A stretch of 32,000 nt of DNA from Mycoplasma sp. CAG:776 (GCA_000438195.1 FR903077.1:112814-144813), one strand, 5' to 3'; shown: positions 2,829-29,582, counted from the stretch's first letter. The notes: generated by a model from the letters alone, not told the origin. Made by a program: numbers and translations.

Positions 2829-4451
2829 TTGAAAAAAAGATTTATTTTTGATGAAAATTATATTAAAAAATATGCAAAAAAAGATAGATTAAAATGGTTG
2901 ATCATAGGCTTATCTGCATTAGTTTTAATAGTGGTTATAATTATCGTTATTTTAGCTACCAGAAATGACACTGCAGATCCAGTAGATCCCGCCGTACCAT
3001 CATTTAAAATAAAAGATGAGTTAATAATAGAAGCAGGGTCTACATTACCAGATGTTACAGATTATTTTGATACTTTAGAAAATATTGATATTGATGAAAT
3101 AGAAATAATATATCCAGATGAATTTGAACTAAGCTATGATACTTCTTTGTGTAGTGAAAAAGAAATAGAAGAGTTATTTAGTGAAGAAAATCCAAATTAT
3201 GAGAATTATGAATGTATACAAAATTATTTAATTATACCAGCAACATATGGTATTACCATTAAGTTACAAGAGGAAGAATATACGGTAAATTTAATTGTAG
3301 AAGATAGTAAAGCCCCAGTATTAATTACCAAAAATGTAGAAATATATGAGGGAGATACTTATGAATTAAGTGATTTTGTTAATACATGCTTCGATACAAC
3401 AAGTGAATGTGATATCACATATTATACAGGTGATAAAGACGCTGAAGGAAACCCAATTGATTATTCTAATATTACCGCAGTGGGTGAACATACAATTAAA
3501 ATTATCGCAACTGATGATTATGGTAATATTACAGAACCAGTAGAAGCAAAATTAACAATATTAGAAGCTGAAGGTGAAATGTATACTGTTACTTTTGATT
3601 CAAATGGTGGAACTACTATTAGAAGTAAAAAAGTAAATGAAAACGATATTGTTATTAAACCAACCGAGCCAAAAAGAGAAGGATATAAATTCTTAGGTTG
3701 GTATTTAGGAGATGAAGAATTCGATTTCGATACTAAAATAACATCCAATATAACCCTAACAGCCAAATGGGAAAAAATAAATGAAGGCGGAGGAAGCCAA
3801 GGTGGCGGAACAGTTAATGTGACAAACGTTTCCTTAAATTATAAAAAAATCTATTTAAAAATAGGAGAAACAAAAACAGTAACAGCTAAAGTAAGTCCTT
3901 CTAATGCAACGAATAAAACAGTTACATGGAGTAGTTCTAATAATAATATAGCAACAGTATCAAATGGTAAGATTACCGGGAAAAGTGCTGGAACCGTAAC
4001 AATTACAGCAACGGCTGGAGGAAAATCAGCAAGTGTAGAAGTAGTAGTAAGTAACTCAAGTGGTGGTACAACATGTACCTATGGTGATACTACTTATAAT
4101 CCAAGTTATGTTTTATCTGTAAATTTAACCCAAAATAATTGCGCAGTCAATCCAAATTCTACACCAAATGAAACGTTATCAACTAGTGATTATTCTAGAT
4201 TAGTAAGGGATTTAAATGATATAGGCTTAAGAGTAACAGGTAATAATTTTGCACATAAAGTAGAACGACAAAAAATAAAAAATACTAGTGGTACTGGACT
4301 AGTAGGATATCAAATAACAATAACTGTAAGTATTGTAGATACTGATAATCCATATGCAGTTTTAACATCAAAATATATTTTAAAATCTGATGGCTCAAGA
4401 CAATTTTTGCAAAATAACATATGTAAAAATGGAATATGCCTAAATAATTAA
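2829..4451 (+). CDS. Membrane-anchored surface protein with a Listeria-Bacteroides (Flg_new) repeat and a Big_2 Ig-like domain
   Basis: TTG start after AAGGACGGGGA. N-terminal TM LIIGLSALVLIVVIIIVILA. 'YTVTFDSNGGT...REGYKFLGWY...ITLTAKW' is the Flg_new repeat signature. 'VTNVSL...IGETKTVTAKVSPSNATNKTVTWSSSNNNIATVS..GKITGKSAGTVTITAT' is a Big_2 signature. Cys-containing C-terminal domain. Confidence 0.8.
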   Translation: MKKRFIFDENYIKKYAKKDRLKWLIIGLSALVLIVVIIIVILATRNDTADPVDPAVPSFKIKDELIIEAGSTLPDVTDYFDTLENIDIDEIEIIYPDEFELSYDTSLCSEKEIEELFSEENPNYENYECIQNYLIIPATYGITIKLQEEEYTVNLIVEDSKAPVLITKNVEIYEGDTYELSDFVNTCFDTTSECDITYYTGDKDAEGNPIDYSNITAVGEHTIKIIATDDYGNITEPVEAKLTILEAEGEMYTVTFDSNGGTTIRSKKVNENDIVIKPTEPKREGYKFLGWYLGDEEFDFDTKITSNITLTAKWEKINEGGGSQGGGTVNVTNVSLNYKKIYLKIGETKTVTAKVSPSNATNKTVTWSSSNNNIATVSNGKITGKSAGTVTITATAGGKSASVEVVVSNSSGGTTCTYGDTTYNPSYVLSVNLTQNNCAVNPNSTPNETLSTSDYSRLVRDLNDIGLRVTGNNFAHKVERQKIKNTSGTGLVGYQITITVSIVDTDNPYAVLTSKYILKSDGSRQFLQNNICKNGICLNN

Positions 4452-12168: not shown

Positions 12169-12846
12169 ATGGAAAAGAAGAACACAATTCTTTTGACAGT
12201 AATCGCAGTAGCTACTCTATTAGTTGCAGTAGTAGGTGCAACATTTGCATACTTCACAGCAACTACTGGTAATTCAGGAGATACATCTTCAACTGGAAAA
12301 GTACAAACTGCAAAAGTAGCAAGTGTAACATTAAAAACTGCAGCAGCAGGAACTTCAAATACAACAATTTATCCAGGAACAACTAACTATGCTGGAATGA
12401 CAGTTGTAGCTGAAAAAACTGGAGATAATGCCGCAGCTGACACAAGAGATTACAATGTTACTTACACATTAAAAGGTGAAGTTAAGTTAAGTGAAGAATT
12501 TACTGCTGGAAAAGTAACTTACAGTGTTTACAGAACTGAAAGCCCAGTTAGCAATCCAGTTACATGTCAAGAAGTAACTTCAACTGGTGCTAAATATTCT
12601 CAAACTTGTACTTTAGCAAAGGAACTTGAAAGTGCTACAAAAATAGTTGATAATCAAGAAGTAAGTGGAACTACTGCAACTATTAGTGTTGGTGATCAAG
12701 TTCGTTCAACTGCAGGCGGAACATATTATTACTATTTAGTAGTATCTTATGAAAATCTTGAATCAGATCAAAATGCTGATCAAGGAAAAACTATTACAGC
12801 TTCATTAACTACTCCAGATATTACAGGAACAGCAGAGGCTGAATAA
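12169..12846 (+). CDS. Secreted TasA/camelysin-like fibre subunit candidate with SipW-cognate signal peptide
   Basis: N-terminus MEKKNTILLTVIAVATLLVAVVGATFAYFTATT matches the SipW-cognate signal-peptide class (…G.TFAYFT/S.). T/A/G/V-rich beta-type sequence. Biased, GC-richer codon usage suggests high expression. Own promoter and terminator. Confidence 0.8.
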   Translation: MEKKNTILLTVIAVATLLVAVVGATFAYFTATTGNSGDTSSTGKVQTAKVASVTLKTAAAGTSNTTIYPGTTNYAGMTVVAEKTGDNAAADTRDYNVTYTLKGEVKLSEEFTAGKVTYSVYRTESPVSNPVTCQEVTSTGAKYSQTCTLAKELESATKIVDNQEVSGTTATISVGDQVRSTAGGTYYYYLVVSYENLESDQNADQGKTITASLTTPDITGTAEAE

Positions 12847-12873
12847 TAGCAACAAAAAACTATTGAAAACCTA

Positions 12874-12901
12874 AAATCTATCATAAAGATAGATTTTTTT
12901 T
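12874..12901 (+). terminator. Rho-independent terminator after the first TasA-like gene
   Basis: AAATCTATC-ataaa-GATAGATTT followed by a T-run. Confidence 0.75.
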
Positions 12902-12971
12902 GACCCTTAATATAAGATATAGCTCGTCATACCAATATATAGTATAATATAAATTATATGGTGGTGATGAC

Positions 12972-14150
12972 ATGGAAAAGAAAGAAATACTAGAAGCAAT
13001 AGAAATTCTTAGAAAATATAACTCTGAAACAAATAGAATAGAAGCCAAAAGTGCAGTTAAATGATTTCCTAAAAATGTTATGACACTTTTTCAAGCTTTT
13101 CTAATAAATATGGTAGAATAATAATTTTTGGATTAAGCGAAGAAAATAATTTTAAAACAGAAGGAATATATGATGTTAAAGATCTTCAAAGAAAAATAAC
13201 CAATTTATGTAAGATTCTATAGAGCCTTCATTGCGATGTGATATATTACCAACAGAATTTGAAGGTAAGAATATTTTAGCAGTCAAAATAGAGGAATTAC
13301 CTCAAAATAAAAAACCATGCTTCTATAAACCAAAAGGATTAAAAAATGGATCATATATAAGAGAGGGTGATTAGATGAGTTAATGACAGATTATGAAATT
13401 TATGCACTCCAAAGTTATAATGATCACGTTATAGAAGATAAAAGACCGACAAAAAATTCTAATATAGAAGACCTAAATTTGCAATCAATCAATAATTATA
13501 TAGAGAAAATAAAAATAGATAAACCCAACTTTGCAAAAAATAGTTTTGAAAAAAGTCTAAAATTATGTGGAATAGTTGACAGTGTTGGTCAAAAAATTGT
13601 TCCTACTCTTGCAGGAACTTTAATCTTTGGAGATTATCCTCAAAGTTATTATCCTCAATTATTTATTGCATGCGCTGTTATTCCAAGGACAACAATTGGT
13701 GAAGTTGGAAATTTAAGAGAACGTTTTATAGATAATAAAAGGGTAGAAGGCACAATTGAAGAAATGATTTAGGAAACTATGAATTTTTCTAAGAAGAAAT
13801 ATGAAAAACAAAATAATCATAAATTCAAATGGTGAAAGAATAAATAGTACAAAATATCCTCTAAAAGCATTAAGAAAAGCAGTAGCTAATGCTCTAATAC
13901 ATAGAGATTATAGTATAGAAACAGAAAATGCATATATTTCTGTATATGTATGAAGATAGAATTGAAATAATTAATCCAGGAGCTTTATATGGCATGAATA
14001 AAATTGAAAAATTAGGGACTTCGGTAGTAATGGAAATCCGAATATTATAAGAATATTAGAAGAAAAAGGATCAATAATTGAAAATAGACATACAGATATT
14101 TCAACAATGAAAAGAGAAATAAATAATAAAAAAGAATACTTAATTGGAAT
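12972..14150 (+). pseudogene. Decayed AlbA_2 (Schlafen-like) / ATP-binding transcriptional regulator gene
   Basis: Starts ATG 12972 (RBS GGTGGTGA). In-frame TGA at 13062. Homologous segments are scattered over all three frames (…IIIFGLSEENNFKTEGIYDVKDLQRKITNLC / DSIEPSLRCDILPTEFEGKNILAVKIEELPQNKKPCFYKPKGLKNGSYIREGD / MTDYEIYAL… / …YPLKALRKAVANALIHRDYSIE…DRIEIINPGALYG). Only 13383..13772 remains as an ORF. Confidence 0.75.
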
Positions 14151-14246: not shown

Positions 14247-14795
14247 ATGAGTATTGGAAAGAAAAATGTAATTTTAGCAGTAGTATTATGTATATCAATT
14301 TCTGTTATAGGCATATCATTTGCTTATTTTACAAGTGGAGTAACTGTAAGTGGTGAAGGAAGTAAAACAGAATTAAAACCAGCAGATATGTTAAAAGTTA
14401 GTTATGATGCAGGATCAAATTCTATAAATTTAGCAAATGCAATGCCAGGAACAACAGCAAGTAAAGATTTTAGTGTAACAGTTACACCAACAGAAAGTGA
14501 AAAAAGTGTAACTTATGCAATTGTATTAGATATTAGTAACAATAATTTTGAAAAAGTTAATGTAAATGAACTAGAATATACACTAAAAAGTAAAGAAGGA
14601 AGCGTTTTAAGTAGTGGAGATTTAACTGAAGCTCAAGGGAAAATTACTTTGTTAAAAGAAACAAAAACAGTCGAAACAGCAACAACTTTTGAGTATAGTT
14701 TAGAAATTACTTATAAAGAAACTGGATCAGATCAAAATCATAATGCTAATAAGACATTTAGCAGCAATTTAAAGGTTGAGTTTGCTGAAGCATAA
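14247..14795 (+). CDS. Second secreted TasA-like protein with SipW-cognate signal peptide
   Basis: Best start is ATG 14247 (RBS ATGGAGGT). MSIGKKNVILAVVLCISISVIGISFAYFTSGV signal. The mature part aligns by eye with the C-terminal domain of the downstream repeat protein. Confidence 0.8.
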   Translation: MSIGKKNVILAVVLCISISVIGISFAYFTSGVTVSGEGSKTELKPADMLKVSYDAGSNSINLANAMPGTTASKDFSVTVTPTESEKSVTYAIVLDISNNNFEKVNVNELEYTLKSKEGSVLSSGDLTEAQGKITLLKETKTVETATTFEYSLEITYKETGSDQNHNANKTFSSNLKVEFAEA

Positions 14796-14841: not shown

Positions 14842-14870
14842 TTGCAAGTAATAAATGGTTATGTTATACT
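14842..14870 (+). promoter_or_regulatory. Putative sigma-A promoter of the repeat-protein gene
   Basis: TTGCAA-17 nt-TATACT. The -10 and flanking 26 nt are repeated at 9240-9265 on the minus strand. Confidence 0.45.
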
Positions 14871-14894
14871 TTTAAATAGTAGGGAGTGTTCCAA

Positions 14895-17486
14895 ATGAAC
14901 GATAGCAATTTACAAGAACAATATGCATTATTAGAAGAGGAGAAAAAAGAAAATAACAAAAAAACTATTATAATTATTATCTTATGTATTTTAATTATTT
15001 TAGTAACAATTTTAGGAATAGTATTTTCATTATCTGGACGCAAGAAAACATGTACAATAAATTGTGATTTAGATGGTGATGGCATAATTGAAACCAACAT
15101 TGATTTAGATGGCGATGGAATTTGTGACGTTAACTGCGATACTGATGGTGATGGTAAACCAGATATTAATATTGATTGGAAAGGTGATAGAAAACCACAT
15201 TTCAATATTGATACAGATGGTGATGGAAAGCCAGATGTTAATTTAGTAAATAAGGATACAGATGGTGATGGAAAACCAGATTTCAATATTGATTTAGATG
15301 ATGACGGATGGCCTGATATTAATATTGATTTAGACAATACAAATACTTGTGATTTAAATTGTGATACTGATGGCGATAATAAACCAGACATAAATATAGA
15401 TGCTAATGGTGATGGCAAACCAGATGTAAATGTGGATACCGATGGAGATGGTAAACCAGATAAAAATTTAATAGATCAAGATACTGATGGTGATGGTGTA
15501 TGTGATTTAAACTGTGACACCGATGGTGATGGTTTTCCAGATACAAATATTGATACAAACGGTGATGGAAAACCAGATTTGAATATTGATAATGACAATG
15601 ATGGTGTGTGTGATGTAAATTGCGATACCAATAATGATGGTAAACCAGATGTAAATATTGATATAGATGGTGATGGTAAACCAGATATAAATGTAGATAC
15701 CGATGGCGATGGAAAACCAGATGAAAATAAAACAAATCAAGATACTGATAATGATGGTGTATGTGACTTAAATTGTGATACGAACCATGATGGCAAACCG
15801 GATATCAATATTGATATAGATGGTGATGGAAAACCAGACATTAACATCGATACTGATGATGATGGTGTATGTGATATAAATTGTGATACTGATGGTGATG
15901 GAAAGCCAGATATCAATATTGATACTGATAATGATGGAACATGTGATTTAAATTGTGATACTAATGGCAATGGAAAGCCAGATATCAATATTGATGCTGA
16001 TAATGATGGAACATGTGATTTAAATTGTGATACTGATGGCGATGGCAAACCGGATATAAATATTGACTATGATGGCGATGGCAAACCAGACTTTAATGTA
16101 GATACTGATAAAGATGGCAAACCAGATAAAAATTTAACAGATCAAGATACCAATGGTGACGGTGTATGTGACCTAAACTGTGATACAGATAAGGACGGCT
16201 TCCCAGATACTAATATTGATATAGATGGTGATGGAAAACCAGACATTAACATCGATACTGATGGTGATGGAAAACCAGACATTAACATTGATGTAGATAA
16301 AGATGGCAAACCAGATGTAAATATCGATACCGATGGTGATGGCAAACCAGATGAAAATTTAACCGACCAAGATACCAATGGCGATGGTGTATGTGACTTA
16401 AATTGTGATACTGATGGTGATGGAAAACCGGATACTAATATAGATGTAGATGGTGATAAAAATCCAGACATTAACATCGATACTGATAATGATGGAGTTT
16501 GTGATTTAAATTGTGACACTGATGGCGATGGTAAACCGGATACTAATATAGATGTAGATGGTGATGGCAAACCAGACATAAATATTGATACCGATGGTGA
16601 TGGAAAGCCAGATGAAAATTTAACCGACCAAGATACCAATGGTGATGGCGTATGTGATCTAAATTGCGATACCAATAATGATGGCAAACCAGACACTAAT
16701 ATAGATGTAGATGGCGATGGTGTATGCGATCTAAATTGTGATAATAATGGTGATGGTGTATGTGACACAAATTGTGTAGGAGAGCTATATAGTAGTGCAG
16801 ACTTAAGCAGTTTAAAAGTAGGAAACTATACATTAAAACCAAGCTTTAATAAAGATATTACTGATTATACAGTTGAGGTTGATAGTAATTTAACCGAAGT
16901 ATTAGTAAGTGCAACAGCTGTAAATTCAAAATCTAAAATAATTGGAGCTGGAACAGTAAAACTAACAAGTGACTCAACAAGAGTATCAATTACCGTAATT
17001 GCTCAAAATGGAAAGACTAAAACTTATAATATTACAATTAATAAAGCTAAGAACCCTAGTACTTCTGAAGAAGGAAGTGGAAATGTAGATATTGGGACAT
17101 CAGAAAATGGAATTTTAACTGTAAGTTTTACAAAGCCAATGTATGCAACAAATATATGGCCAGGATGGACGGGAATACACGAATTTACAATAAAAAATAA
17201 TTCTGATAAAGCTGTTGTGTATAATATAAATTTAATAAATGTAACAAATACATTTACAAGTGATAATTTTGTATACACCCTAGTAAAAGATGGAAAAACA
17301 CTTATCACTAAAACTCCAGCTTTAAAATCAGATGGTAAAGTAATTGAAAACCTAGTGATAGCACCTGGAGAAACAGCTGTTTTCCAAATGAATTATGAAT
17401 TTGTAGAAATTGGTAAACCACAAGATTATGATCAAGGTAAAAACTATAAAGGAACCATAGAAATACAAATTGTATCTGCAAATTAA
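14895..17486 (+). CDS. Membrane-anchored giant Asp/Cys-rich calcium-binding repeat protein (thrombospondin type-3-like repeats, cadherin-like beta-sandwich, TasA-like C-terminal domain)
   Basis: ATG 14895 after TAGGGAG. N-terminal TM IIIIILCILIILVTILGIVFSL. About 570 aa of DxDGDGKPDxNID units punctuated by 15 CxxNC motifs. 'LSSLKVGNYTLKPSFNKDITDYTVEV…ITVIAQNGKTKTYNITI' fits the cadherin-like beta-sandwich pattern. The last ~130 aa resemble the two small TasA-like proteins. Confidence 0.85.
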   Translation: MNDSNLQEQYALLEEEKKENNKKTIIIIILCILIILVTILGIVFSLSGRKKTCTINCDLDGDGIIETNIDLDGDGICDVNCDTDGDGKPDINIDWKGDRKPHFNIDTDGDGKPDVNLVNKDTDGDGKPDFNIDLDDDGWPDINIDLDNTNTCDLNCDTDGDNKPDINIDANGDGKPDVNVDTDGDGKPDKNLIDQDTDGDGVCDLNCDTDGDGFPDTNIDTNGDGKPDLNIDNDNDGVCDVNCDTNNDGKPDVNIDIDGDGKPDINVDTDGDGKPDENKTNQDTDNDGVCDLNCDTNHDGKPDINIDIDGDGKPDINIDTDDDGVCDINCDTDGDGKPDINIDTDNDGTCDLNCDTNGNGKPDINIDADNDGTCDLNCDTDGDGKPDINIDYDGDGKPDFNVDTDKDGKPDKNLTDQDTNGDGVCDLNCDTDKDGFPDTNIDIDGDGKPDINIDTDGDGKPDINIDVDKDGKPDVNIDTDGDGKPDENLTDQDTNGDGVCDLNCDTDGDGKPDTNIDVDGDKNPDINIDTDNDGVCDLNCDTDGDGKPDTNIDVDGDGKPDINIDTDGDGKPDENLTDQDTNGDGVCDLNCDTNNDGKPDTNIDVDGDGVCDLNCDNNGDGVCDTNCVGELYSSADLSSLKVGNYTLKPSFNKDITDYTVEVDSNLTEVLVSATAVNSKSKIIGAGTVKLTSDSTRVSITVIAQNGKTKTYNITINKAKNPSTSEEGSGNVDIGTSENGILTVSFTKPMYATNIWPGWTGIHEFTIKNNSDKAVVYNINLINVTNTFTSDNFVYTLVKDGKTLITKTPALKSDGKVIENLVIAPGETAVFQMNYEFVEIGKPQDYDQGKNYKGTIEIQIVSAN
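15051..16775 (+). repeat. Coding tandem-repeat array (short ~10-13-codon DxDGDG units nested in a higher-order repeat of about 260 bp)
   Basis: Near-identical DNA blocks, e.g. 16326-16455 versus 16586-16715 (gataccgatggtgatgg…gatgaaaatttaaccgaccaagataccaatgg…). Repeated gatggtgatgg(a/c)aaaccaga motifs throughout. Confidence 0.9.
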
Positions 17487-17495
17487 AAAAGAGAA

Positions 17496-17522
17496 AGTAA
17501 ATATAAAAGTATTTACTTTTTT
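17496..17522 (+). terminator. Rho-independent terminator after the repeat-protein gene
   Basis: AGTAAATA-taaaag-TATTTACT followed by TTTTTT. Confidence 0.7.
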
Positions 17523-17534
17523 GATGGAATAATC

Positions 17535-17563
17535 TTGTATTTTAAGAAGTTATAAGCTATAAT
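17535..17563 (+). promoter_or_regulatory. Putative sigma-A promoter of sipW
   Basis: TTGTAT-17 nt-TATAAT. RBS AGGAGGGG precedes ATG 17590. Confidence 0.45.
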
Positions 17564-17589
17564 ATATAATAGAATAGGAGGGGCTCAAC

Positions 17590-18372
17590 ATGAAAGGTAG
17601 AAAATTTTCATGGCAAGCAATTGTCCATATTATTTTTAAAATATTATCATGGGCTCTTTTTATAATCCTTTTACTAATAGCTATTTTTCTTTTATATTAT
17701 TATATAGCAAATAAAATTTATGTTAAAAATGGACCAGGATATGAACCAAAATTTTCAATATATACTATAGCATCTGGATCTATGGTACCAAATATAAACA
17801 TATATGATGCAGTTATAAATATGCGTATTGATGACCCAAATGATTTAAAAGTAGGAGATGTTATCACATTTCGTTCCTCAAATCCAACAAATATTAATAT
17901 GACAGTAACTCATAGAATTAAAGCAATAACAAAAGATTCAGATGGAAACGCTTGTTATGTAACAAAAGGTGACGCTAATCCAATAGAGGATGAAGTATGT
18001 GCAAAATATAAAAATGTCATAGGAAAAGTTATTATAAGAATTCCTGGAGTTGGCCATATACAACGTTTCTTGGCATCAGGAATAGGATGGATGTTATTTA
18101 TTCTGATACCCGCTTTGATTATTATTGGTAAAGATATTATGAAGATAACTAAGCTTTCATCAATCAAAGAAAATGCTAGTAAAATGACTGATAAAAAACG
18201 AAAAGACCCTAAAAAAGAAGCAGCTGAGAAAAAACGAAAAGAAGAAATAAAAAGAAAATTATTAAATGAAAATAAAGGAACTAAAGAATACTATCGTGAT
18301 CCAACTATCAAAATAATTGAGAAGAAAAAAACTAAAAAAGAAAATGATAAACAAAAACGAAAGAAAAAATAA
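17590..18372 (+). CDS. sipW: Signal peptidase I, archaeal/ER type (SipW-like), with an extended Lys-rich C-terminal tail
   Basis: N-terminal TM. Catalytic Ser box IASGSMVPNINIYDAVI, His box VTHRIKAI, KGDANP box. Second TM GIGWMLFILIPALIIIG. Then about 80 aa of K/E/R-rich sequence. Confidence 0.85.
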   Translation: MKGRKFSWQAIVHIIFKILSWALFIILLLIAIFLLYYYIANKIYVKNGPGYEPKFSIYTIASGSMVPNINIYDAVINMRIDDPNDLKVGDVITFRSSNPTNINMTVTHRIKAITKDSDGNACYVTKGDANPIEDEVCAKYKNVIGKVIIRIPGVGHIQRFLASGIGWMLFILIPALIIIGKDIMKITKLSSIKENASKMTDKKRKDPKKEAAEKKRKEEIKRKLLNENKGTKEYYRDPTIKIIEKKKTKKENDKQKRKKK

Positions 18373-21997: not shown

Positions 21998-22444
21998 ATG
22001 GGTCAAGTATATGATCATGTAAAAATATATAAAAAGAAATTCCCTGGGGGAGTAACATGGTGGAGATTAAAAAAACATAGTGCTGTAATAGAAGAACATT
22101 TAAATCCCGGCGAAACGGTACGCTATGCATTTGCAGGACAAAAGAATGATAAATTCTATGATTTAACATCTACTGCTGTAATAGCAATAACCAATAAAAG
22201 AATTTTAATTGGTCAAAAGCGTGTAGTATGGGGATATTTTCTAAGTAGTATTACACCAGACTTATATAATGATATGCAAGTTTATTCTGGGTTAATTTGG
22301 GGAAAAGTTACAATTGATACTGTGAAAGAAGAAGTAGTAATAACAAATTTAGCAAAAGATTCTTTAAGAGAAATTGAAACAGAGATTTCAGAATTTATGA
22401 TGGAAGAAAAGAAAAAATATGGACAAACAATGCTAGATAATTAA
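21998..22444 (+). CDS. Bacterial PH-like (YokE-type) domain protein
   Basis: ATG 21998 after GTGGTGA. 'GETVRYAFAGQ…TSTAVIAITNKRILIGQKR' resembles bacterial PH-domain proteins. This assignment is tentative. Confidence 0.5.
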   Translation: MGQVYDHVKIYKKKFPGGVTWWRLKKHSAVIEEHLNPGETVRYAFAGQKNDKFYDLTSTAVIAITNKRILIGQKRVVWGYFLSSITPDLYNDMQVYSGLIWGKVTIDTVKEEVVITNLAKDSLREIETEISEFMMEEKKKYGQTMLDN

Positions 22445-22455
22445 TGGTGTAAAAT

Positions 22456-23550
22456 ATGAAGAAATTAAAAATATTTCAAATTACAATTGTAGTTTTATTT
22501 ATAATTTTTATTTTTTTCTTTTTACGGGCAACAGATTATACAAAAGAATATCAAGTAAATGACATAAATATTAAGGAAAGTTATGATAAGAAAAAAGAAA
22601 GTTACTATTTCACTTTTGAATATAATGATATTATTTTAGACTATTTATATGAAAGTAATTATAAACAAAAAAGAAATTTTATAAATGATATAGAAATAAT
22701 AGAAGAAGATGATAATTTTTGCTTAATACCTAAAGGAGATACATTAGAATTTATTCCTCTGTGTTATAATAACAAAGAAAATACTTATTATAAAAATGTA
22801 AGTGATAATCTAAAAGAGCAAATACCAGAAGAATATCTAAAAACTGAGAAAGAATTAAAAGAAACATATGAAGACATAAAAATATATAATAAAGACTACA
22901 CTTATTTATTATGGGACTATGACGGTTTCTATTATATAAATGAAAAAGAAAATAAAAAAATAGATTTATTTAATAAAGAAATATATAATGTAAATTTAAT
23001 TACATATACGGAGGATTATCTAATTATACCTGACTATGACTCAGATTATACATTTGACAAATTTTACAGAATTTCTTTAAAAGACGGTGATGTAAAAGAT
23101 TACAAATTAAAAGAAAAAATATATTTTGATAGTTATTATCCAGGATATGAAAAAAATAAATTATATATTGTGGATAATAAGGAAGAGTTAATGTATGAGT
23201 TAAATGTGAAAAATGGTAAAATAGAAAAAATAAAACCCCAAATATTAAATAATAATAAGTGGGAAGAGGTAGGAATTAAAACATTAGTTAATCAAGATAA
23301 AGAATTTAAATATAAAACTAATTATAATTATGTTTTAAAAGAAAATGACTTATATTTGAATTATAATGAGCATGATATAAAAACCAGAATAGATAGTGAT
23401 GTCACATCTATAGTAAGAATAAAAAATAATCTAATATTTTATTTAAAGAAAGATACATTATATGTATTTGACCCATTAACAGGAAGTAAGAAATTATTAA
23501 ACTATTTTGAATGGAACTTTAATTATAAAAATATGATTTATGTAGATTAA
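22456..23550 (+). CDS. Hypothetical N-terminally anchored extracellular protein (Y/N/K-rich)
   Basis: Single N-terminal TM IFQITIVVLFIIFIFFFL. A long ORF closely following the previous gene. No recognisable motif. Confidence 0.6.
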   Translation: MKKLKIFQITIVVLFIIFIFFFLRATDYTKEYQVNDINIKESYDKKKESYYFTFEYNDIILDYLYESNYKQKRNFINDIEIIEEDDNFCLIPKGDTLEFIPLCYNNKENTYYKNVSDNLKEQIPEEYLKTEKELKETYEDIKIYNKDYTYLLWDYDGFYYINEKENKKIDLFNKEIYNVNLITYTEDYLIIPDYDSDYTFDKFYRISLKDGDVKDYKLKEKIYFDSYYPGYEKNKLYIVDNKEELMYELNVKNGKIEKIKPQILNNNKWEEVGIKTLVNQDKEFKYKTNYNYVLKENDLYLNYNEHDIKTRIDSDVTSIVRIKNNLIFYLKKDTLYVFDPLTGSKKLLNYFEWNFNYKNMIYVD

Positions 23551-23583
23551 CCAAATTGTGTCTTTATCATATCCTATTAATAG

Positions 23584-23910
23584 ATGAGGAGTGATAATTT
23601 GAACGATAACAATAGTTATTTTACTTACTATACAATAGAAAAAGGTGATAATTTATATGAAATTGCCAAAAAATATAATATTAATCCTAAATTATTAGCA
23701 GCTATAAATGGAATAAAAGACAATGAATATATTTATCCTAATCAAGAGTTACTAATTCCTAAGAGTGGATATAGTTATTATATTACCGCTGAAGGTGATA
23801 CTTTAAGTGGTGTATCTAATGCTTTTAAAACAACTCCAGAAAATATATTAAAATATAATAGTACAGTTTATCTTTTACCTGAACAAATATTAGTATATAA
23901 AAGTAGATAG
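23584..23910 (+). CDS. Two-LysM-domain peptidoglycan-binding protein
   Basis: Two LysM signatures (YTIEKGDNLYEIAKKYNINPKLLAAINGI…LIP and YYITAEGDTLSGVSNAFKTTPENILKYNS). The start could instead be TTG 23599, after GAGGAGTGA. Confidence 0.75.
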   Translation: MRSDNLNDNNSYFTYYTIEKGDNLYEIAKKYNINPKLLAAINGIKDNEYIYPNQELLIPKSGYSYYITAEGDTLSGVSNAFKTTPENILKYNSTVYLLPEQILVYKSR

Positions 23911-23929
23911 TCTCACAGAGACTTTTTTC
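23909..23929 (+). terminator. Rho-independent terminator after the LysM gene
   Basis: AGTCTC-aca-GAGACT followed by TTTTTT. Confidence 0.75.
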
Positions 23930-23975
23930 TTGCGTGAAAATATGAAGTAATGTATAATAAACTCGAGGTGAAAAT

Positions 23976-24401
23976 ATGTTGAATTTTTATGCTTACATGA
24001 ATTATCATTTAATAAAACAAGGATATGTTACAATGTACGAAGTACCAGCTGAAGTAATAATAAATTTATTAAGAAGTTTTTTACAAGAAAGATTATTAGA
24101 AAAGGAAGAAATAGATATTTTTAGTTTATATAGTAAATTTTATCAAGTAGCTCAAGATAAAAAAGAAGTAGAAACAATCATTCATTTTTTATTAGGCTAT
24201 ATATCAGATTTACAAGGATTTGCCGTAGCTTGGTATATAAATGAAACAGAAGAACCAACTTTTACTTACAATAAACACTATCCAAATAAAATAGATGGAT
24301 TAAATACAACAATAAACATAGATTATGAAAAAGTATTTGCTTATGTTCTAAATACTGCTTTAGATTTAAAAGAAAAAAGAGAAGAAGGAATAAGAAGATG
24401 A
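23976..24401 (+). CDS. Hypothetical protein, translationally coupled to the MYG1-family gene
   Basis: RBS GAGGTGA. Its stop overlaps the next start (ATGA at 24398-24401). No recognised family. Confidence 0.55.
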   Translation: MLNFYAYMNYHLIKQGYVTMYEVPAEVIINLLRSFLQERLLEKEEIDIFSLYSKFYQVAQDKKEVETIIHFLLGYISDLQGFAVAWYINETEEPTFTYNKHYPNKIDGLNTTINIDYEKVFAYVLNTALDLKEKREEGIRR

Positions 24402-25288
24402 TTAGACTTGTTAATGATTTAAAAGAGGCAGACTTTGTAACTCATGCAGGAAATTTTCATGCAGATGATGTATTTTCAACTGTATTTCTAGAGAAATTAT
24501 ATAAAGATATTTCTTTAATTCGTTTAAAAGAATATCAAGACGATGGTAGTAAACTAGCATATGATATTGGATTAGGAGCTTTTGATCATCATGGTGCCGA
24601 CTTTGATAAGAAAAGAGAAAACGGCATCCATTATTGTGGCTTTGGCCTTCTTTGGCAGGAATTCGGAAGAGAATATTTAAAAAAAGAAGGAATAGAAAAT
24701 TATGAAAATGTTTTTCTAATTTTAGATGAACTATTAGTAACCCAAATAGATGCTTTTGATAATGGAGAATATACGGTGGATGCTCCATTTAACATTTATA
24801 CTCTATCTATTTTAGTAGAACAATTTAGACCAAAATTTAAGGAAGAAAAAGAGGAAAACAAGTGTTTTTTAGAAGTAGTTGAATTTGCTAGAATAATTTT
24901 TGAGAAAATATTAGATGATGCAATATCAAAAGCCAAAGTAATAGAAGAAATTAGTAAGTTAAAGGAAACAATTAAAGATAAAGTATTAATTTTAGATGAA
25001 TATATTCCTTACGAATATGCTATATTTAAATTAAACTTAGACGTAGATTTTGTTGTTTATCCTTCCAATCGTGGTGGTTATGCTGCTCATACAGTACCAA
25101 CCAAATATAAGGGATTTACCCCAAGAATACCATTTAAAAAAGAATGGGCTGGAAAAAGAGATGAAGAACTAAGAGCGATAAGTGGAATAAAAACAGCCAA
25201 ATTTTGCCATAACAAATGTTTCCTAGCAACAGCTGAAACCAAAGAAGACGCATTAAAATTTATTTTAAAAACCAAAGAAGAGAATTAA
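24398..25288 (+). CDS. MYG1/UPF0160-family metal-dependent hydrolase
   Basis: N-terminal 'THAGNFHADDVFST' and 'DIGLGAFDHHG' motifs are characteristic of MYG1. 296 aa. Confidence 0.8.
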   Translation: MIRLVNDLKEADFVTHAGNFHADDVFSTVFLEKLYKDISLIRLKEYQDDGSKLAYDIGLGAFDHHGADFDKKRENGIHYCGFGLLWQEFGREYLKKEGIENYENVFLILDELLVTQIDAFDNGEYTVDAPFNIYTLSILVEQFRPKFKEEKEENKCFLEVVEFARIIFEKILDDAISKAKVIEEISKLKETIKDKVLILDEYIPYEYAIFKLNLDVDFVVYPSNRGGYAAHTVPTKYKGFTPRIPFKKEWAGKRDEELRAISGIKTAKFCHNKCFLATAETKEDALKFILKTKEEN

Positions 25289-25309
25289 AAAATATTAATT
25301 CTTTTTTTT
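25282..25309 (+). terminator. AT-rich hairpin terminator after the MYG1 gene
   Basis: GAATTAA-aaaata-TTAATTC followed by T8. Confidence 0.45.
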
Positions 25310-25378
25310 AAATAATCAATATCCTTGATAAATAATAATTTTAAAATTTAAAATATTTACTAATAGCAAACATTTTTA

Positions 25379-25407
25379 TTGACAAAAATCGACTTCTAAT
25401 ATATATT
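25379..25407 (+). promoter_or_regulatory. Putative promoter of the DGR accessory/RT operon
   Basis: TTGACA-17 nt-TATATT, about 110 nt upstream of ATG 25517. Confidence 0.45.
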
Positions 25408-25516
25408 TATAGTATATGAAAGTATGATAAACAAAGCATATTTTTATATTAAGTATTTATCTTAGTTATGATGAGCAGTAATAATCTTAACTACAAAAAT
25501 GTAGAAAGGGAATATT

Positions 25517-25924
25517 ATGAAGACGATTGATAAATATCTAAAATTTAAAGAGATGTACAAAGATCATGTAGTAATTATTAAATCTGGCAATTTTTATTAT
25601 ACTTTTGATGATGACACTTATATAATGAATTATTTTTTTGGCTATCAAATAAGAGAAAATAAAATAGGCTTTCCTCTAAATGCTAAAGCCAAAGTAAAAA
25701 GTGTATTAAATCGCAATAATGTAAATTTAATTGAAGTAATAGATGACTATGCTTATATTTTAGAATCTAAAAATGATAATGCTTATCAAAATAAATTAAG
25801 AGAAGCGAAAAGTAATATGTTAGTATCTAACATGTTAAATAACTTAATGAATGCTATAGAGATAAAGGTAAAAAAAGAAGAAGCTAATTATGAATTAATA
25901 AAGGAGTTTGTAGATGAACTCTAA
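25517..25924 (+). CDS. MutS domain-I-like small protein (DGR 'MSL'-type accessory protein)
   Basis: 'KYLKFKEMYKDHVVIIKSGNFYYTFDDDTYIMNYFFGYQI…IGFPLNAKAKVKSVLNRNNVNLIEV' parallels the MutS N-terminal mismatch-binding domain (QY..iK..yPd.ll.fr.GDFYE.F..DA…l.i.lT…GvP.ha...y...L...G.kVai). RBS AAAGGGA. Overlaps the next ORF by 11 nt. Confidence 0.7.
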   Translation: MKTIDKYLKFKEMYKDHVVIIKSGNFYYTFDDDTYIMNYFFGYQIRENKIGFPLNAKAKVKSVLNRNNVNLIEVIDDYAYILESKNDNAYQNKLREAKSNMLVSNMLNNLMNAIEIKVKKEEANYELIKEFVDEL

Positions 25925-26261
25925 TTTTTCTTTATTAAATAATACCAAAAAAACAATAGCATTTATTAATAAACAATTAATAAATTATCCTAAATCAGAA
26001 GTAGTGTTGAAACAAAATATTGAAAGAAACATGTATGAATTAATTGAACTAATTTTTTCTTATAGTATTAATGATGTAGAAAGAATAAAAATAAAATTTT
26101 TAAAAGATTTAATCATTAAATTATCAATGTTAGATTTTTATATAGCAACATCTTTTGAAAAAAGAATAATTAGTAAAAAAAAGTTTGAATCAACATCTAT
26201 GTTCATTGTCGAGATAAGAAAAATAGCTTACGGATTGGTGCGAAATGAAACCAAGTGTTAA
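25914..26261 (+). CDS. avd: Avd-like four-helix-bundle accessory variability determinant
   Basis: 115 aa. The helical pattern 'INKQLINYPKSEVVLKQNIERNMYELIELIFSY…KFLKDLIIKLSMLDFYI…ISKKKFES…VEIRKIAYGLV' matches the Avd / four-helix-bundle family (fP+sE+..L..+i….l.ll.li…). RBS AAGGAG. Overlaps the RT by 17 nt. Confidence 0.75.
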   Translation: MNSNFSLLNNTKKTIAFINKQLINYPKSEVVLKQNIERNMYELIELIFSYSINDVERIKIKFLKDLIIKLSMLDFYIATSFEKRIISKKKFESTSMFIVEIRKIAYGLVRNETKC

Positions 26262-27357
26262 GTATGAGGAATTAGTAGATATCGATAAGATAATTGCCAT
26301 GTATAAAATAATAAGAGCTAACACTAAAAATAGAGGGAAATTACATAAATTTGAATTATTTTATGCTAGTAACATAATTAGCATATTAAACGTTTTAAAA
26401 TATAAAAAATATGAACATAGCCATTATAATGTATTTCTGGTTCATGAACCAAAATATCGAATTATCATGAGTGAAATCATGAGTGATAAAGTGGTAAACC
26501 ATGTTGTAAGTCACTTCGTATTAGACCCGGGCATAACTCCCCATTTAATTCCGCAGAATGTAGCTACTAGAAAAGGAATGGGAACGAAAGAAGGAATACG
26601 ATATGTTAAAAAATATATTAATAAATTAAAATTAAATTATGATAAAGTATATGTTTTGAAATGCGATATCAAAAAATACTTTTATAGTATTGATCATGAA
26701 TTAATATTAGAAAAAGTAAAAAGATTTATAACAGATCCAGATGTTTATAAATTAGTAGAAAACATAGTACAATCAACAGATAATTCTTATGTAAATGAAG
26801 CGATTGGGAAAGTAATCAATAAAGAAATCAAACGAATAGAAGGATTAAACATTTTAGATAAGGAAATTAAAATAGCAGAGTTAAAGAGTATACCTTTATA
26901 TAAAAAAGGAAAAGGGTTACCAATTGGTAATATGACCAGTCAATTATTAGCAATATATTTTTTAAATGATTTAGATCATTATATAAAAGAAAGATTATAT
27001 TGTAAGTATTATGTAAGATATATGGATGATTTTGTCATATTCGATTATGATAAAGAGCGGTTAAAAGAGATAAGAAAAAAGATAGAAGAAAAACTAATAG
27101 AATTTAAATTAGAACTGAATAGAAAAACAAATATTTATGATTTAAAGCATGGGTTTGGTTTTTTAGGTTACCAATTTATTTTAAAAGAAAAAAGACTTAT
27201 AATTAAAATTAATTCTGCTACCAAAAGAAGAATCAAAAAAAAGATGCGTAAGTTAAAAAAGATAAACGCACCAAATTATGAACAAGTAAAAGCAAGTTAT
27301 ATGGGCTACTTGACAGTTGCACATAGTAAAAACTTACTTAAGAAACTAGACCTTTAA
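26245..27357 (+). CDS. Diversity-generating-retroelement-type reverse transcriptase
   Basis: Motif 1-2 'EPKYRIIMS…DKVVNHVV', motif 4 'GLPIGNMTSQLLAIYFLNDLDHYI' (the DGR-typical I/LGxxxSQ rather than the xxSP of retron or group II RTs), catalytic 'VRYMDDFVIF', thumb 'FGFLGYQF'. 370 aa with no maturase or endonuclease domains. Confidence 0.85.
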   Translation: MKPSVKYEELVDIDKIIAMYKIIRANTKNRGKLHKFELFYASNIISILNVLKYKKYEHSHYNVFLVHEPKYRIIMSEIMSDKVVNHVVSHFVLDPGITPHLIPQNVATRKGMGTKEGIRYVKKYINKLKLNYDKVYVLKCDIKKYFYSIDHELILEKVKRFITDPDVYKLVENIVQSTDNSYVNEAIGKVINKEIKRIEGLNILDKEIKIAELKSIPLYKKGKGLPIGNMTSQLLAIYFLNDLDHYIKERLYCKYYVRYMDDFVIFDYDKERLKEIRKKIEEKLIEFKLELNRKTNIYDLKHGFGFLGYQFILKEKRLIIKINSATKRRIKKKMRKLKKINAPNYEQVKASYMGYLTVAHSKNLLKKLDL

Positions 27358-27564
27358 TTAACGAGGGTCTTTTTCAATGTGGGAAAATAATAAGAAAATA
27401 TTAATAATTCCACAAACACCAACAATACCATAGATAATTCTTGTAACAACACTAGAGTCTTGAAATAAACTAGTAACTAAATTAAAATCAAAGAATCCAA
27501 TAAGTCCCCAGTTAATAGCTCCAATAATTGTAAAAATTAATGCTATTTTTTGTAATGTTTCCAT
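27358..27564 (-). CDS. DUF378-family small membrane protein
   Basis: 68 aa, two TM helices, with the 'IGAINWGLIGFF.FNLV' motif typical of DUF378. RBS AAAGGGTG. Confidence 0.8.
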   Translation of the reverse strand: METLQKIALIFTIIGAINWGLIGFFDFNLVTSLFQDSSVVTRIIYGIVGVCGIINIFLLFSHIEKDPR

Positions 27565-27743
27565 TTAATCACACCCTTTGCTACTATTATGTAGTAAACA
27601 AACTAAAATTATACATAAATTTGTAGAAATAAGAAAAATAAAAAATGTAAATAAAGTCAAAGTTATAAACAATTAAAATATAAAAAATAAATTCATAATT
27701 TTAACAAAGAGCAATATAGTTAAATTAGAGAAGGGTGTGTTAT

Positions 27744-28847
27744 ATGAAAAAATTAGTTATTCTAGCACTAGGGTTAATGTTATTTATTACGGGATGTGGG
27801 AAAGAAACAGAAGAAGATTTAATAGCTAAATTTGAAAAAAGTATCACAAATTCAAAATCCTATATCTTAAAGGGAAATATGGAAATTTTGAGTAATGAAG
27901 AAACGTTCACTTATAGTATAGAAGCAAATTATTTAAAAGATGATTATTATAAAGTAACATTAGTAAATCAAACAAATAATCATGAACAAATAATTTTAAA
28001 AAATGGAGATGGAGTATATGTTGTAACACCAACATTAAATAAAAGCTTCAAATTCCAAAGCGAATGGCCAGCTAATAGTAGCCAATCTTATATTTTATCT
28101 TCTTTGCTAAATGATATTAAAGGGGAAGAAAAAATTAGTGTAGAAGAACAAGATAAAAACTACATTTTAAAAACAAAAGTAAATTATCCAAACAATTCTG
28201 CGTTAACATATCAAAAAATTTATTTTGACAAAAATATGAATTTAGAAAAGGTAGAAGTATATGATAGTGAAGATATTGTAAATATTAAGGTAGTATTTTC
28301 CTCAATTGATTTAAAGGCCGGACTAAGCGAAGAAGACTTTTTGTTAGAAGATTTAATTGATATGAATGCCGAAAATAAAAAAGATGAGAATAAAGAACCA
28401 AAAGAAGAAGAAAATAATCAAAATACAGAAAATACAGAAGGCCAAAATACAGGAAATGAATGTGAAAATGAAGAATGTGATACAAAATCAAGCAACATAT
28501 TAGATAGTATTATTTATCCGTTGTATATTCCAAGTGAAACATATTTATCAAATAGTGAAGAAATTGATACAGATGAAGGAAATAGAATGATTCTTACCTT
28601 TGCAGGAGATAAAAACTTTGTTTTAATAGAAGAAGTAGCAAATATAGCTAATGAATTTGAAATAATACCTGTATATGGAGATCCAGTAATGTTAAGCGAT
28701 ACTATTGCTGCTAAGAGTGCCAATTCCCTTTATTGGACGAGTGAAAATGTATCTTATTATTTAACAAGTAATGACTTATCAACAGAGGAGATGGTAACCA
28801 TAGCTGAATCATTAGGAAATACTAAAGTAGTATCAGGAAGCAAATAA
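27744..28847 (+). CDS. Lipoprotein with a LolA-like N-terminal fold and a DUF4367-like C-terminal domain
   Basis: ATG 27744 after GAGAAGGG. Lipobox LFITG|C. Acidic low-complexity linker (ENKKDENKEPKEEENNQNTENTEGQN). C-terminal '…LYWTSENVSYYLTSNDLSTEEMVTIAESL'. Confidence 0.75.
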   Translation: MKKLVILALGLMLFITGCGKETEEDLIAKFEKSITNSKSYILKGNMEILSNEETFTYSIEANYLKDDYYKVTLVNQTNNHEQIILKNGDGVYVVTPTLNKSFKFQSEWPANSSQSYILSSLLNDIKGEEKISVEEQDKNYILKTKVNYPNNSALTYQKIYFDKNMNLEKVEVYDSEDIVNIKVVFSSIDLKAGLSEEDFLLEDLIDMNAENKKDENKEPKEEENNQNTENTEGQNTGNECENEECDTKSSNILDSIIYPLYIPSETYLSNSEEIDTDEGNRMILTFAGDKNFVLIEEVANIANEFEIIPVYGDPVMLSDTIAAKSANSLYWTSENVSYYLTSNDLSTEEMVTIAESLGNTKVVSGSK

Positions 28848-28982
28848 GCTTCTTTTTATATAAAATAATTTTTTTATCAGCGAAAAATATAGTTAGGCAG
28901 ATAGTAAAGTAAACTAAAAAATAAAATTTGACAAACCTAATAGGTAATGCTAATATATATGATCACGAAAGGGGAGAAAAAT

Positions 28983-29501
28983 ATGAGTATTCAATTTATT
29001 AATAGTTTGATAAATCCTATTAATGATAAGTTAATAATGGCTAAAAAAGATTGTTTAAGAATGCAAGAATTATCTTTTACTGGAGTAAAACATGAATTAA
29101 CAGAAAATAACAGTAGAACAATAATATATAGTTTACTACCAGGATTAGAAGATTTTCAAATAATAGTGCAAATAGATGCAAACGGAATGAAACATACTTA
29201 TATAGCCAAACTATTTTTAATAGCAGAAATAAGTGAAGAATCATTAGAAGAACTATTAAAAAGAATAAATTTAGCAAATACTAAAATAAAACAAGGAAAT
29301 GCAGAAGATTTAAAAGAACTATTAACGTTACCAGAAGAAATAGAAAATAATTGCCTTATTATGTCAAAGCTTTCTTTAAGAAAAGAAACTCATAAATTAG
29401 ATTTAATGTTTTTAGAATTTGCATTAGGAATAAAAAAATTACGTGAAATTCAATTACAATATTGGAACATGAGAAGTATGAACAATCAAAATATAAGATG
29501 A
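28983..29501 (+). CDS. Hypothetical cytoplasmic protein
   Basis: ATG 28983 after AGGGGAG. A TTGACA(28928)-17 nt-TAATAT promoter lies upstream. No recognised family. Confidence 0.55.
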   Translation: MSIQFINSLINPINDKLIMAKKDCLRMQELSFTGVKHELTENNSRTIIYSLLPGLEDFQIIVQIDANGMKHTYIAKLFLIAEISEESLEELLKRINLANTKIKQGNAEDLKELLTLPEEIENNCLIMSKLSLRKETHKLDLMFLEFALGIKKLREIQLQYWNMRSMNNQNIR

Positions 29502-29582
29502 TAAAAGAAATAAAAAGCAAAATTATGTAAAAACTTGCTTTCTTTTATTTTTATTGCTATAATTTATCTAGGTGGTGGAAAC

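Follow-up and report, generated by a model that had tools for sequence, protein, structure and literature searches.

A tandem array of 12-residue Dx[DN]xDG loops as a predicted calcium-binding stalk encoded beside SipW- and TasA-like genes in Mycoplasma sp. CAG:776

The analysis of a 32,000-nucleotide stretch of DNA from Mycoplasma sp. CAG:776 (GCA_000438195.1, FR903077.1:112814-144813; hereafter the window, with positions counted from its first letter) reveals a single open reading frame (ORF) on the + strand that runs from a GTG at 14886 to 17486, in which the ATG at 14895 is the likely start and gives a product of 863 amino acids (aa), here called the stalk protein. An earlier note, made from the sequence alone, had pointed to about 1.7 kb of Asp- and Cys-rich repeats at 15051-16775. 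This coding region is real and in frame, corresponding to residues 56-630 of the GTG form, and its 575 aa comprise 30% Asp, 13% Gly, 13% Asn and 5% Cys. The array begins a few residues past an N-terminal hydrophobic segment, and the gene and its parts are laid out as follows (AF2, AlphaFold2; dN/dS, ratio of nonsynonymous to synonymous substitution rates).

14895..17486, + strand: gene of the stalk protein, 863 aa, with GGGAG about 8 nt 5' of the ATG; exact product found on 18 contigs
14895..14963, + strand: conserved N-terminal tail MNDSNLQEQYALLEEEKKENNKK, predicted to be cytoplasmic; kept in orthologues, dN/dS 0.10-0.13
14964..15035, + strand: hydrophobic segment of 24 residues, signal anchor or SipW-type signal peptide, ending LGIVFSLS (LGLYFAYS in orthologues)
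15051..16775, + strand: repeat array of 46 units with 15 CxxxC pairs, predicted Ca2+-binding stalk
16806..17045, + strand: Cadherin-like beta-sandwich domain PF12733, residues 641-720 of the GTG form (Pfam)
17085..17483, + strand: C-terminal jelly-roll domain of about 130 aa, subunit-like tip (AF2, Foldseek and hhalign)

The search with Cadherin-like hidden Markov models that the earlier note had proposed placed PF12733 above its gathering threshold (28.4 bits for the whole protein and 32.0 bits for a fragment, cut-off 24.2), downstream of the array. The AF2 model of the C-terminal domain is a jelly roll with a predicted local distance difference test score (pLDDT) of 85. The protein ends GTIEIQIVSAN, and a sorting signal, in the sense of a motif, a hydrophobic stretch and a basic tail, is absent from its C-terminus. 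Pfam and NCBIfam matches to Ntox24, I-set, Ig_3 and SNARE were set aside as chance or compositional, covering stretches of about 30 residues or less each; only Ntox24 among them reaches its cut-off (24.5 bits against 24). An identity with the staphylococcal Sdr/Clf proteins (microbial surface components recognizing adhesive matrix molecules, MSCRAMMs) was likewise rejected, the NCBIfam scores being 107-117 bits against cut-offs of 999-2500, with only the Ser-Asp repeat parts of the profiles matching.

At the protein level, the array is formed by a 12-residue unit that is repeated head to tail and in register, with the consensus D-x-[DN]-x-D-G-(K/V)-(P/C)-D-x-N-(I/C). A regular-expression search matched 44 units at a spacing of 12 or 15 residues; these, with two degenerate units and a leading CTINC, were counted as 46 units, and a 3-residue insertion of the NLTDQ type is found in 6 of the 46. 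Across the 44 matched units, the first half reads Asp at position 1 (44/44), mostly Thr at 2, Asp or Asn at 3 (43/44), mostly Gly at 4, Asp at 5 (43/44) and Gly at 6 (41/44), and the second half reads Lys or Val at 7, Pro (31 units) or Cys (13 units) at 8, Asp at 9 (43/44), Ile, Leu or Val at 10, Asn at 11 (44/44), and Ile (22 units), Cys (13 units) or Leu/Val (8 units) at 12. The Cys-bearing elements had been described earlier as 15 interruptions of the form C-D-(L/V/I)-N-C-D. The count of 15 CxxxC pairs holds only when CTINC and CDTNC are added to 13 strict copies of C-D-[LVI]-N-C-D, and interruption proved to be the wrong term: the C-D-L-N-C elements are ordinary 12-mers in which Pro8 and Ile12 have both been swapped for Cys, in-register variants that recur at every second to fifth unit. 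Scans of the whole protein and of its fragments against Pfam and NCBIfam assigned no family to the repeat. Structure prediction of one repeat block, which the earlier note had also recommended, was carried out with AF2 on 147 aa (nt 15741-16181) and returned a pLDDT of 67 (76-82 in the centre), with beta-bridges from I12 of one unit to I10 of the next as the sole regular feature, i.e., the modelled block is a chain of closed loops.

The unit resembles a widely distributed type of calcium site. Dx[DN]xDG is a self-contained Ca2+ loop that is found in many unrelated folds, has many convergent origins and is completed by a later acidic residue, as near as two residues after the motif (Rigden et al. 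2011, PMC3123361). The array has both parts that define this class, namely the motif, with 41 strict copies in the stalk protein, and a later acidic or amide ligand; specifically, Asp9 (43/44) fits the minimal spacing of the additional acidic ligand, and Asn11 is present in every matched unit. In a Pfam fragment scan the best match was to positions 9-18 of FG-GAP (22.3 bits), those to EF-hand_5 and TSP_3 being weak, and the family matches of the array are confined to the Ca-loop parts of the profiles. A search of PDB sequences with the protein and with a repeat profile gave only filamin and polcalcin matches at E of at least 0.03, which were taken as chance. The proposal of an Asp-rich, probably Ca2+-binding extracellular stalk is supported by the 41 complete loops, each then followed by Asp9, and the array is probably an extracellular, Asp-rich stalk for which Ca2+ binding is predicted. 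The EF-hand loop, the "calcium blade" of integrin/FG-GAP and dockerin similarly combine Dx[DN]xDG with a following acidic ligand. Unlike in these systems, the loop of the array is the entire repeat, about 46 times over, and comes without a helix, a propeller blade or a host fold.

The earlier note had gone further and read the array as thrombospondin type 3 (TSP3) repeats, i.e., as a bacterial homologue with a thrombospondin-like calcium core and disulfides. Both the array and TSP3 (1ux6, 1yo8/2rhp, 3fby) have tandem DxDxDGxxD loops with a common DxDGDGxxD core, Cys pairs near the loops, an extracellular setting and little predicted regular secondary structure. The profile searches, however, did not bear out membership of the family. 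Pfam TSP_3 (PF02412) gave no match to the whole protein at E <=0.1, and the best fragment, which is Cys-free, reached 13.1 bits (E 0.078) against a gathering cut-off of 25, with 6.9 bits for TSP3_bac (PF18884). Neither the protein (phmmer) nor a 33-sequence repeat profile retrieved a thrombospondin (TSP) or COMP chain at E <=10 from a PDB sequence set that contains TSP-1, TSP-2 and COMP chains, Foldseek found nothing, and pairwise BLAST against the TSP-2 repeats aligned only 10-residue DxDGDGxxD stretches at E of at least 0.12. The repeat architecture differs as well. In TSP-2, adjacent DxDxDG loops lie 23 aa apart with a proline-containing linker, whereas those of the array lie 12 aa apart with no such linker, and the TSP_3 profile is 36 aa long against an array period of 12 aa. 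TSP-2 reads DTDGDGVGDHCDNCP, with Cys at 11/14 (CxxC) counted from the first Asp, whereas the stalk array reads DTDGDGVCDLNC, with Cys at 8/12 (CxxxC) within one unit, and the Asp at position 12 of the TSP3 loop is replaced in the array by Ile, Cys, Leu or Val in 43 of 44 units. With the period, linker, position 12 and Cys register all different, and with Dx[DN]xDG loops having arisen convergently many times (PMC3123361), homology to TSP3 is very improbable in our judgement. As judged from sequence, the array shares only the generic Dx[DN]xDG calcium loop with TSP3, and it should be labelled as a tandem Dx[DN]xDG loop repeat, unclassified.

The conservation of the array was investigated by comparing the stalk gene with its orthologues. 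Three other species-level metagenome-assembled genomes (MAGs) encode colinear 863-aa orthologues without a single indel across the 575-aa array (a fourth orthologue, in L008, has 864 aa; the colinearity comparison covered the other three). Against these three 863-aa proteins, the array shows 82-86% identity and the C-terminal part 69-77%. The dN/dS of the array is 0.06-0.11, below the values of the globular domains, at a dS above 1 where synonymous sites are saturated, and 31 of 31 Cys are kept in the three species. Because of the missing indels, the low dN/dS and the conserved Cys, the array is a constrained structure and not a drifting low-complexity spacer. That the region might be a structureless acidic spacer, or an assembly artefact of a shorter gene, could be argued from its 30% Asp, from the NCBIfam matches that fall only on staphylococcal Ser-Asp repeats and from the moderate confidence of the AF2 model. 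This explanation is largely refuted, and we give it almost no weight, in view of the strict 12-residue register, the absence of indels among four species, the dN/dS, the strong position-specific conservation and the Cys coupling described below, together with the DNA-level evidence that the exact protein is found on 18 independent contigs and that the longest exact repeat is 52 nt. The constraint also bears on the opposite strand, where the earlier note had counted five spurious antisense ORFs. Four of at least 80 aa, S/P- or H/Y-rich, were found on the - strand:

14864-15418, - strand: antisense ORF
15403-15735, - strand: antisense ORF
15737-16048, - strand: antisense ORF
16142-16768, - strand: antisense ORF

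These are by-products of the repeat and not genes, as had been supposed, because the sense frame is under strong purifying selection and colinear across species.

The Cys pairs were examined across 241 proteins with 3,696 units. Both Cys8 and Cys12 are present in 379 units, only one of the two in 33, and neither in 3,284, where independence would give about 42 double-Cys units by our arithmetic from those counts. On this sequence evidence, the Cys8/Cys12 pair acts as a unit that replaces Pro8/Ile12, and the coupling implies that positions 8 and 12 are in contact. We infer that the pair forms an intra-unit staple, which could be a disulfide or a shared metal ligand. Exported Firmicutes proteins generally avoid Cys, less strictly in anaerobes (Daniels et al., PMC2823432), which is why 15 conserved extracellular Cys pairs are unusual and why the remark in the earlier note that extracellular disulfides would be unexpected here is fair. 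Fifteen such pairs, conserved and strictly coupled, thus raise the question of extracellular thiol chemistry for gut anaerobes.

At the DNA level, Tandem Repeats Finder reported periods of 36, 72, 108, 144, 225 and 261 nt in the array, reflecting blocks such as one Cys unit, two K-P units and one long unit. The higher-order repeat of about 260 bp proposed in the earlier note exists, with an offset of 261 nt, and its copies are less alike than the near-identity then reported:

16326-16455 and 16587-16716, + strand: two 130-nt copies, 88% identical, 261 nt apart

When the second copy is taken at 16586-16715, as first proposed, its identity to 16326-16455 is 24%. The longest exact repeat is confined to the 52 nt given above, and a second self-match has 73.5% identity at an 891-nt offset. 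The worry that the array of the window might be an artefact of assembly is dispelled by the exact 863-aa product, encoded on 18 contigs of independent assemblies. Copy-number change by recombination, which had been predicted, is borne out by length differences. Within the species, contig L053 and four similar contigs encode a 776-aa form that is exactly 261 nt (87 aa) shorter, with the junction within 16320-16673, so that the deletion falls between the two copies listed above; L053 belongs to the same species, as its SipW is identical and its flanks are about 99% identical, and other strains with 26-29 nucleotide differences retain the 863-aa form. Within a sister species, two assemblies (UMGS1172 and an ENA contig; L010 4642-6711 versus L001 8001-9584) differ by a 486-nt in-frame block of the array, the flanks being 99.0-99.5% identical and the products 689 and 527 aa long. 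The 14 orthologous loci come from MAGs of human and rabbit gut that carry the labels Bacilli, Tenericutes or Mycoplasma. Their stalk proteins are between 493 and 958 aa long and contain 8-48 units and 9-22 CxxxC pairs, array lengths for which collapse by short-read assemblers may still account in individual contigs. On the favoured reading, stalk length shifts in whole higher-order units via unequal recombination. The real length alleles of 863 and 776 aa also mean that the length of this gene in short-read MAGs is not reliable as given.

The distribution of the repeat places the stalk protein within a large set of surface proteins. A word-indexed search identified 946 proteins with the repeat among 8,000 scored candidates, and a profile search of 1.84 billion cluster representatives returned 2,092 at E <=1e-3 and 579 at E <=1e-10. 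Two classes can be distinguished. Class A, to which about 66 of the best 120 matches belong, combines a Cys-bearing array with a hydrophobic segment at the N-terminus and, at the C-terminus, the same 130-aa domain as in the stalk protein. Class B consists of large proteins with Cys-free arrays that end no more than 100 aa from the C-terminus in 86 of 148 cases, many of them directly preceding sortase-type signals in which IPRTGD, NVQTGD or VDTGD is followed by a hydrophobic stretch and a basic tail, an arrangement seen in proteins of Clostridia and Erysipelotrichia; its named sources are Anaerotruncus, Emergencia, Beduini, Coprobacillus, Eubacterium, Oscillospiraceae and Clostridioides difficile. 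The C. difficile member (P0086, a hypothetical protein of 1186 aa) carries about 15 Cys-free copies just before an NVQTGD-type sorting signal and places the repeat in a cultivable pathogen where its study is feasible. In both classes the repeat adjoins the anchored end of the protein, the classical site of a wall-spanning stalk. The Ser-Asp repeats of the staphylococcal Sdr/Clf MSCRAMMs are likewise an acidic tandem repeat beside the anchored end; unlike these, the array is built from a 12-residue Ca-loop unit rather than a dipeptide, and the stalk protein is without a sorting signal. A literature search for DGDGKPD retrieved no paper, and the matches for DTDGDG were mostly oligonucleotide notation. 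About 2,000 protein clusters at 50% identity contain such tandem Ca-loop repeats, for which neither Pfam nor NCBIfam has a model; in gut Firmicutes they often make up the portion of a large surface protein that lies nearest the wall. A model would improve the annotation of many adhesins.

The genomic context of the stalk gene was investigated through the genes that surround it, three of which are central to the interpretation (ER, endoplasmic reticulum).

12169..12846, + strand: secreted protein of 225 aa with the SipW-type signal peptide VVGATFAYFTAT, candidate major fibre subunit, paralogue of the 182-aa protein
14247..14795, + strand: secreted protein of 182 aa with the SipW-type signal peptide IGISFAYFTSG, TasA/camelysin-like candidate fibre subunit
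17590..18372, + strand: SipW-type (archaeal/ER-type) signal peptidase I, directly downstream of the stalk gene (TIGR02228, 94 bits against 51.85)

The Bacillus SipW model scores 79 bits on 17590-18372, under its cut-off, and the source annotation of this gene is "type I signal peptidase". The gene of the 225-aa protein is kept upstream of the stalk gene in related loci, and its product aligns with the p194 family. The SipW-cognate signal peptide model TIGR04088 reaches 13.7 bits on the 182-aa protein against a cut-off of 19, and the sequence G-x-[ST]-F-A-Y-F at the end of the signal peptide is invariant in 15 members of the secreted-protein family. The cluster recurs in at least 14 species of gut Bacilli represented by MAGs. 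The gene order is kept in the 14 loci, with the 225-aa protein, a protein of about 195 aa, the stalk protein and sipW followed by a convergent femAB and a DUF308 gene; sipW itself lies downstream in 12 of the 14 loci and in L001, and the contigs L008 and L016 end at the stalk gene. In three distant clades a signal peptidase gene lies directly downstream of a class A stalk gene (L048 8082-8735, L050 7775-8302 and 17590-18372 in the window); two of these genes are of the SipW type, and the third codes for a LepB-type Peptidase_S26 (142 bits). This placement points to the stalk protein itself as a dedicated substrate of the adjoining signal peptidase, or as its partner. The outer end of the hydrophobic segment (15017-15035 in the window; P0005, P0006, P0008 and P0019-type proteins) reads LG[IL][YF]F[SA][YI]S, or GGFATYTG in another clade, and is similar to the G-x-[ST]-F-A-Y-F with which the signal peptides of the adjacent secreted proteins end. 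Between the genes, an AT-rich hairpin with a T8 run follows the 225-aa gene (about 12873-12900, -8.9 kcal/mol), and a hairpin with a 14-bp stem and a T-run follows the stalk gene (17490-17522), where the 112-nt spacer between the stalk gene and sipW folds at -20 kcal/mol and a promoter-like site precedes sipW at 17542-17570. Both AT-rich hairpins were missed by the consensus terminator scan and were folded by hand.

The C-terminal domain of the stalk protein shares homology with the mature region of both secreted proteins encoded upstream (hhalign 97.2%, E 3.9e-11, 132 columns; pairwise E 5e-6). In Bacillus subtilis, donor-strand exchange drives TasA polymerisation, SipW has both TapA and TasA as substrates, and TapA, whose gene accompanies sipW, has been proposed as the anchor of the fibre and as the source of the first (N-terminal) donor strand (PMC9674648), a position occupied in B. 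cereus by CapP instead of TapA (PMC13082335). Like TapA in the tapA-sipW-tasA arrangement and like CapP, the stalk protein would be an accessory protein encoded beside sipW and candidate fibre subunit genes. No sequence similarity to TapA was detected in the stalk protein, and unlike TapA it carries a whole subunit-like domain at its C-terminus, separated from a membrane segment by a long Ca-loop stalk.

Taken together, we lean, with modest confidence, towards the reading that the array is a calcium-stiffened, wall-spanning stalk presenting a subunit-like tip for TasA-like fibres. In each unit, Ca2+ is predicted to be held by the side chains of D1, D/N3 and D5, by Gly6 and by the later acidic ligand D9, and P8, I/L10 and I12 would form a hydrophobic clasp after each loop. 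With about one Ca2+ per unit, some 40 in total, the chain would be stiffened into a rod that could hold the Cadherin-like domain and the jelly-roll tip clear of the membrane, reaching through or past the wall. Because the tip is homologous to two co-encoded secreted proteins, it may act as a cell-attached first or last "subunit" that anchors or nucleates TasA-like fibres, a role like that of TapA. Retention in the membrane would be consistent with the conserved 23-aa tail before the hydrophobic segment (about 35 to 100 aa in distant clades) and with the 24-residue length of that segment.

Several observations weigh against this reading. The end of the hydrophobic segment in orthologues, LGLYFAYS, is like the SipW-type FAYF and a signal peptidase gene lies directly downstream in distant clades, so that the N-terminus may be cleaved and the membrane anchor removed. 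The Foldseek matches of the C-terminal domain are weak and mixed: the best query-normalised TM-score belongs to TasA (5of2, 0.53, E 4e-3), and other jelly rolls, including carbohydrate-binding modules, are among them. Weak Peptidase_M73 matches occur in 5 of the 15 secreted proteins, the lowest E being 5.8e-5, and in 5 of the 31 tip domains, where the lowest is 1.2e-3; one homologue has a precomputed PF12389 annotation, the tip-domain profile matched 0 PDB sequences, and the secreted-protein profile matched among PDB sequences only the hydrophobic segment of an archaeal pilin. The links to TasA and camelysin are weak but consistent. The moderately confident AF2 model of the repeat had 0 Foldseek matches in the PDB. 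The hairpins after the 225-aa and stalk genes suggest separate transcription units, and ready disulfide formation on the exterior of a gut anaerobe would be unexpected.

The evidence on the N-terminus bears most directly on the main rival, in which the stalk protein would be a secreted matrix protein: SipW would cut after the hydrophobic segment (FSLS/G) and release a soluble Asp-rich product, whose tip would join TasA-like fibres and whose acidic repeats would cross-link fibres or bind the wall via Ca2+. The resemblance of the hydrophobic-segment end to SipW-type signal peptides speaks for it, as do the signal peptidase immediately downstream in three distant clades (one of the LepB-type S26) and the precedent that both TapA and TasA are SipW substrates (PMC9674648). 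Against this stand the conserved tail of 23 aa, extended to about 35 to 100 aa in distant clades, such as cleaved signal peptides do not usually have, the 24-residue hydrophobic stretch, and the sortase-anchored relatives, which always have the repeat beside the anchored end, as fits a spacer. On balance, we regard secretion into the matrix as rather unlikely, even as the strongest of the competing explanations. A further possibility is a stand-alone adhesin, in which the stalk would simply display two ligand-binding heads, the Cadherin-like domain and the jelly roll, and fibre assembly would not involve the protein. Its stalk-plus-tip layout would be typical, the Cadherin-like domain passes its cut-off, the jelly-roll matches include carbohydrate-binding modules, and in some distant relatives no TasA-like gene lies closer than 6 kb. 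The homology of the tip to co-encoded SipW-type secreted proteins and the gene order kept in 14 loci make it, in our estimation, distinctly improbable.

Returning to the stalk as a proposed fibre-presenting rod, it can be placed among known systems. RTX beta-roll nonapeptides and the Bap/MpIBP-type immunoglobulin-like repeats embody the same concept, in which many tandem Ca2+ sites rigidify a chain that projects a binding tip. To our knowledge, these extenders have other repeat sequences, lengths and predicted folds, and we know of no homology between them and the array. The array would belong among the Ca2+-binding acidic stalk repeats of Gram-positive surface proteins, in a proposed fibre-anchor context. 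We raise a bolder combination of claims as a tentative possibility, one that we hold more doubtful than sound. The repeat would represent an undescribed fold class, a rod made only of Dx[DN]xDG loops whose Pro8/Ile12 clasp is periodically exchanged for a Cys8-Cys12 staple; jointly with this, the Cys-bearing family might be a new cell-surface base for TasA-like fibres with a built-in subunit domain, in which a dedicated signal peptidase processes or holds the stalk and length is tuned by recombining blocks of 261 to 486 nt. The Cys-bearing subfamily, tied to clusters of signal peptidase and TasA-like genes, is in any case a candidate for the attachment of TasA-type fibres in lineages without TapA.

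Other features of the window were noted in passing. Despite its Mycoplasma label, the uncultured gut lineage appears to be a walled member of the Bacilli, because it encodes FemAB, LysM and a GerS-like lipoprotein. Among 22 genes of the window, the stop codons are 18 TAA, 4 TAG and 0 TGA, in-frame TGA is absent and Trp is encoded by TGG (36 codons); the lineage may avoid TGA or leave it unassigned. Between the two TasA-like genes, at about 12970-14100, lie gene remnants broken by frameshifts and stops, which are read as a pseudogene because they are still broken under genetic code 4. By eye the remnant resembles an AlbA_2/RecG-like helicase-type regulator, Pfam assigned no family on the one fragment scanned, and it is absent from the same place in the sister species (L001). 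At 25914-27357 on the + strand, an Avd-like ORF (NF033474, 35 bits, cut-off 80) overlaps the beginning of a gene for a reverse transcriptase (RVT_1, 70.7 bits), and the two could be a diversity-generating retroelement or another reverse transcriptase system. A search of 22000-30000 for template/variable repeat pairs of 50 nt or more came up empty, and scans of the window for tRNA genes and Rfam families, group II introns included, gave no match. Finally, a second predicted surface protein of 540 aa, with a Listeria-Bacteroides repeat (Flg_new) and a Big_2 domain, is encoded at 2829-4451 on the + strand.

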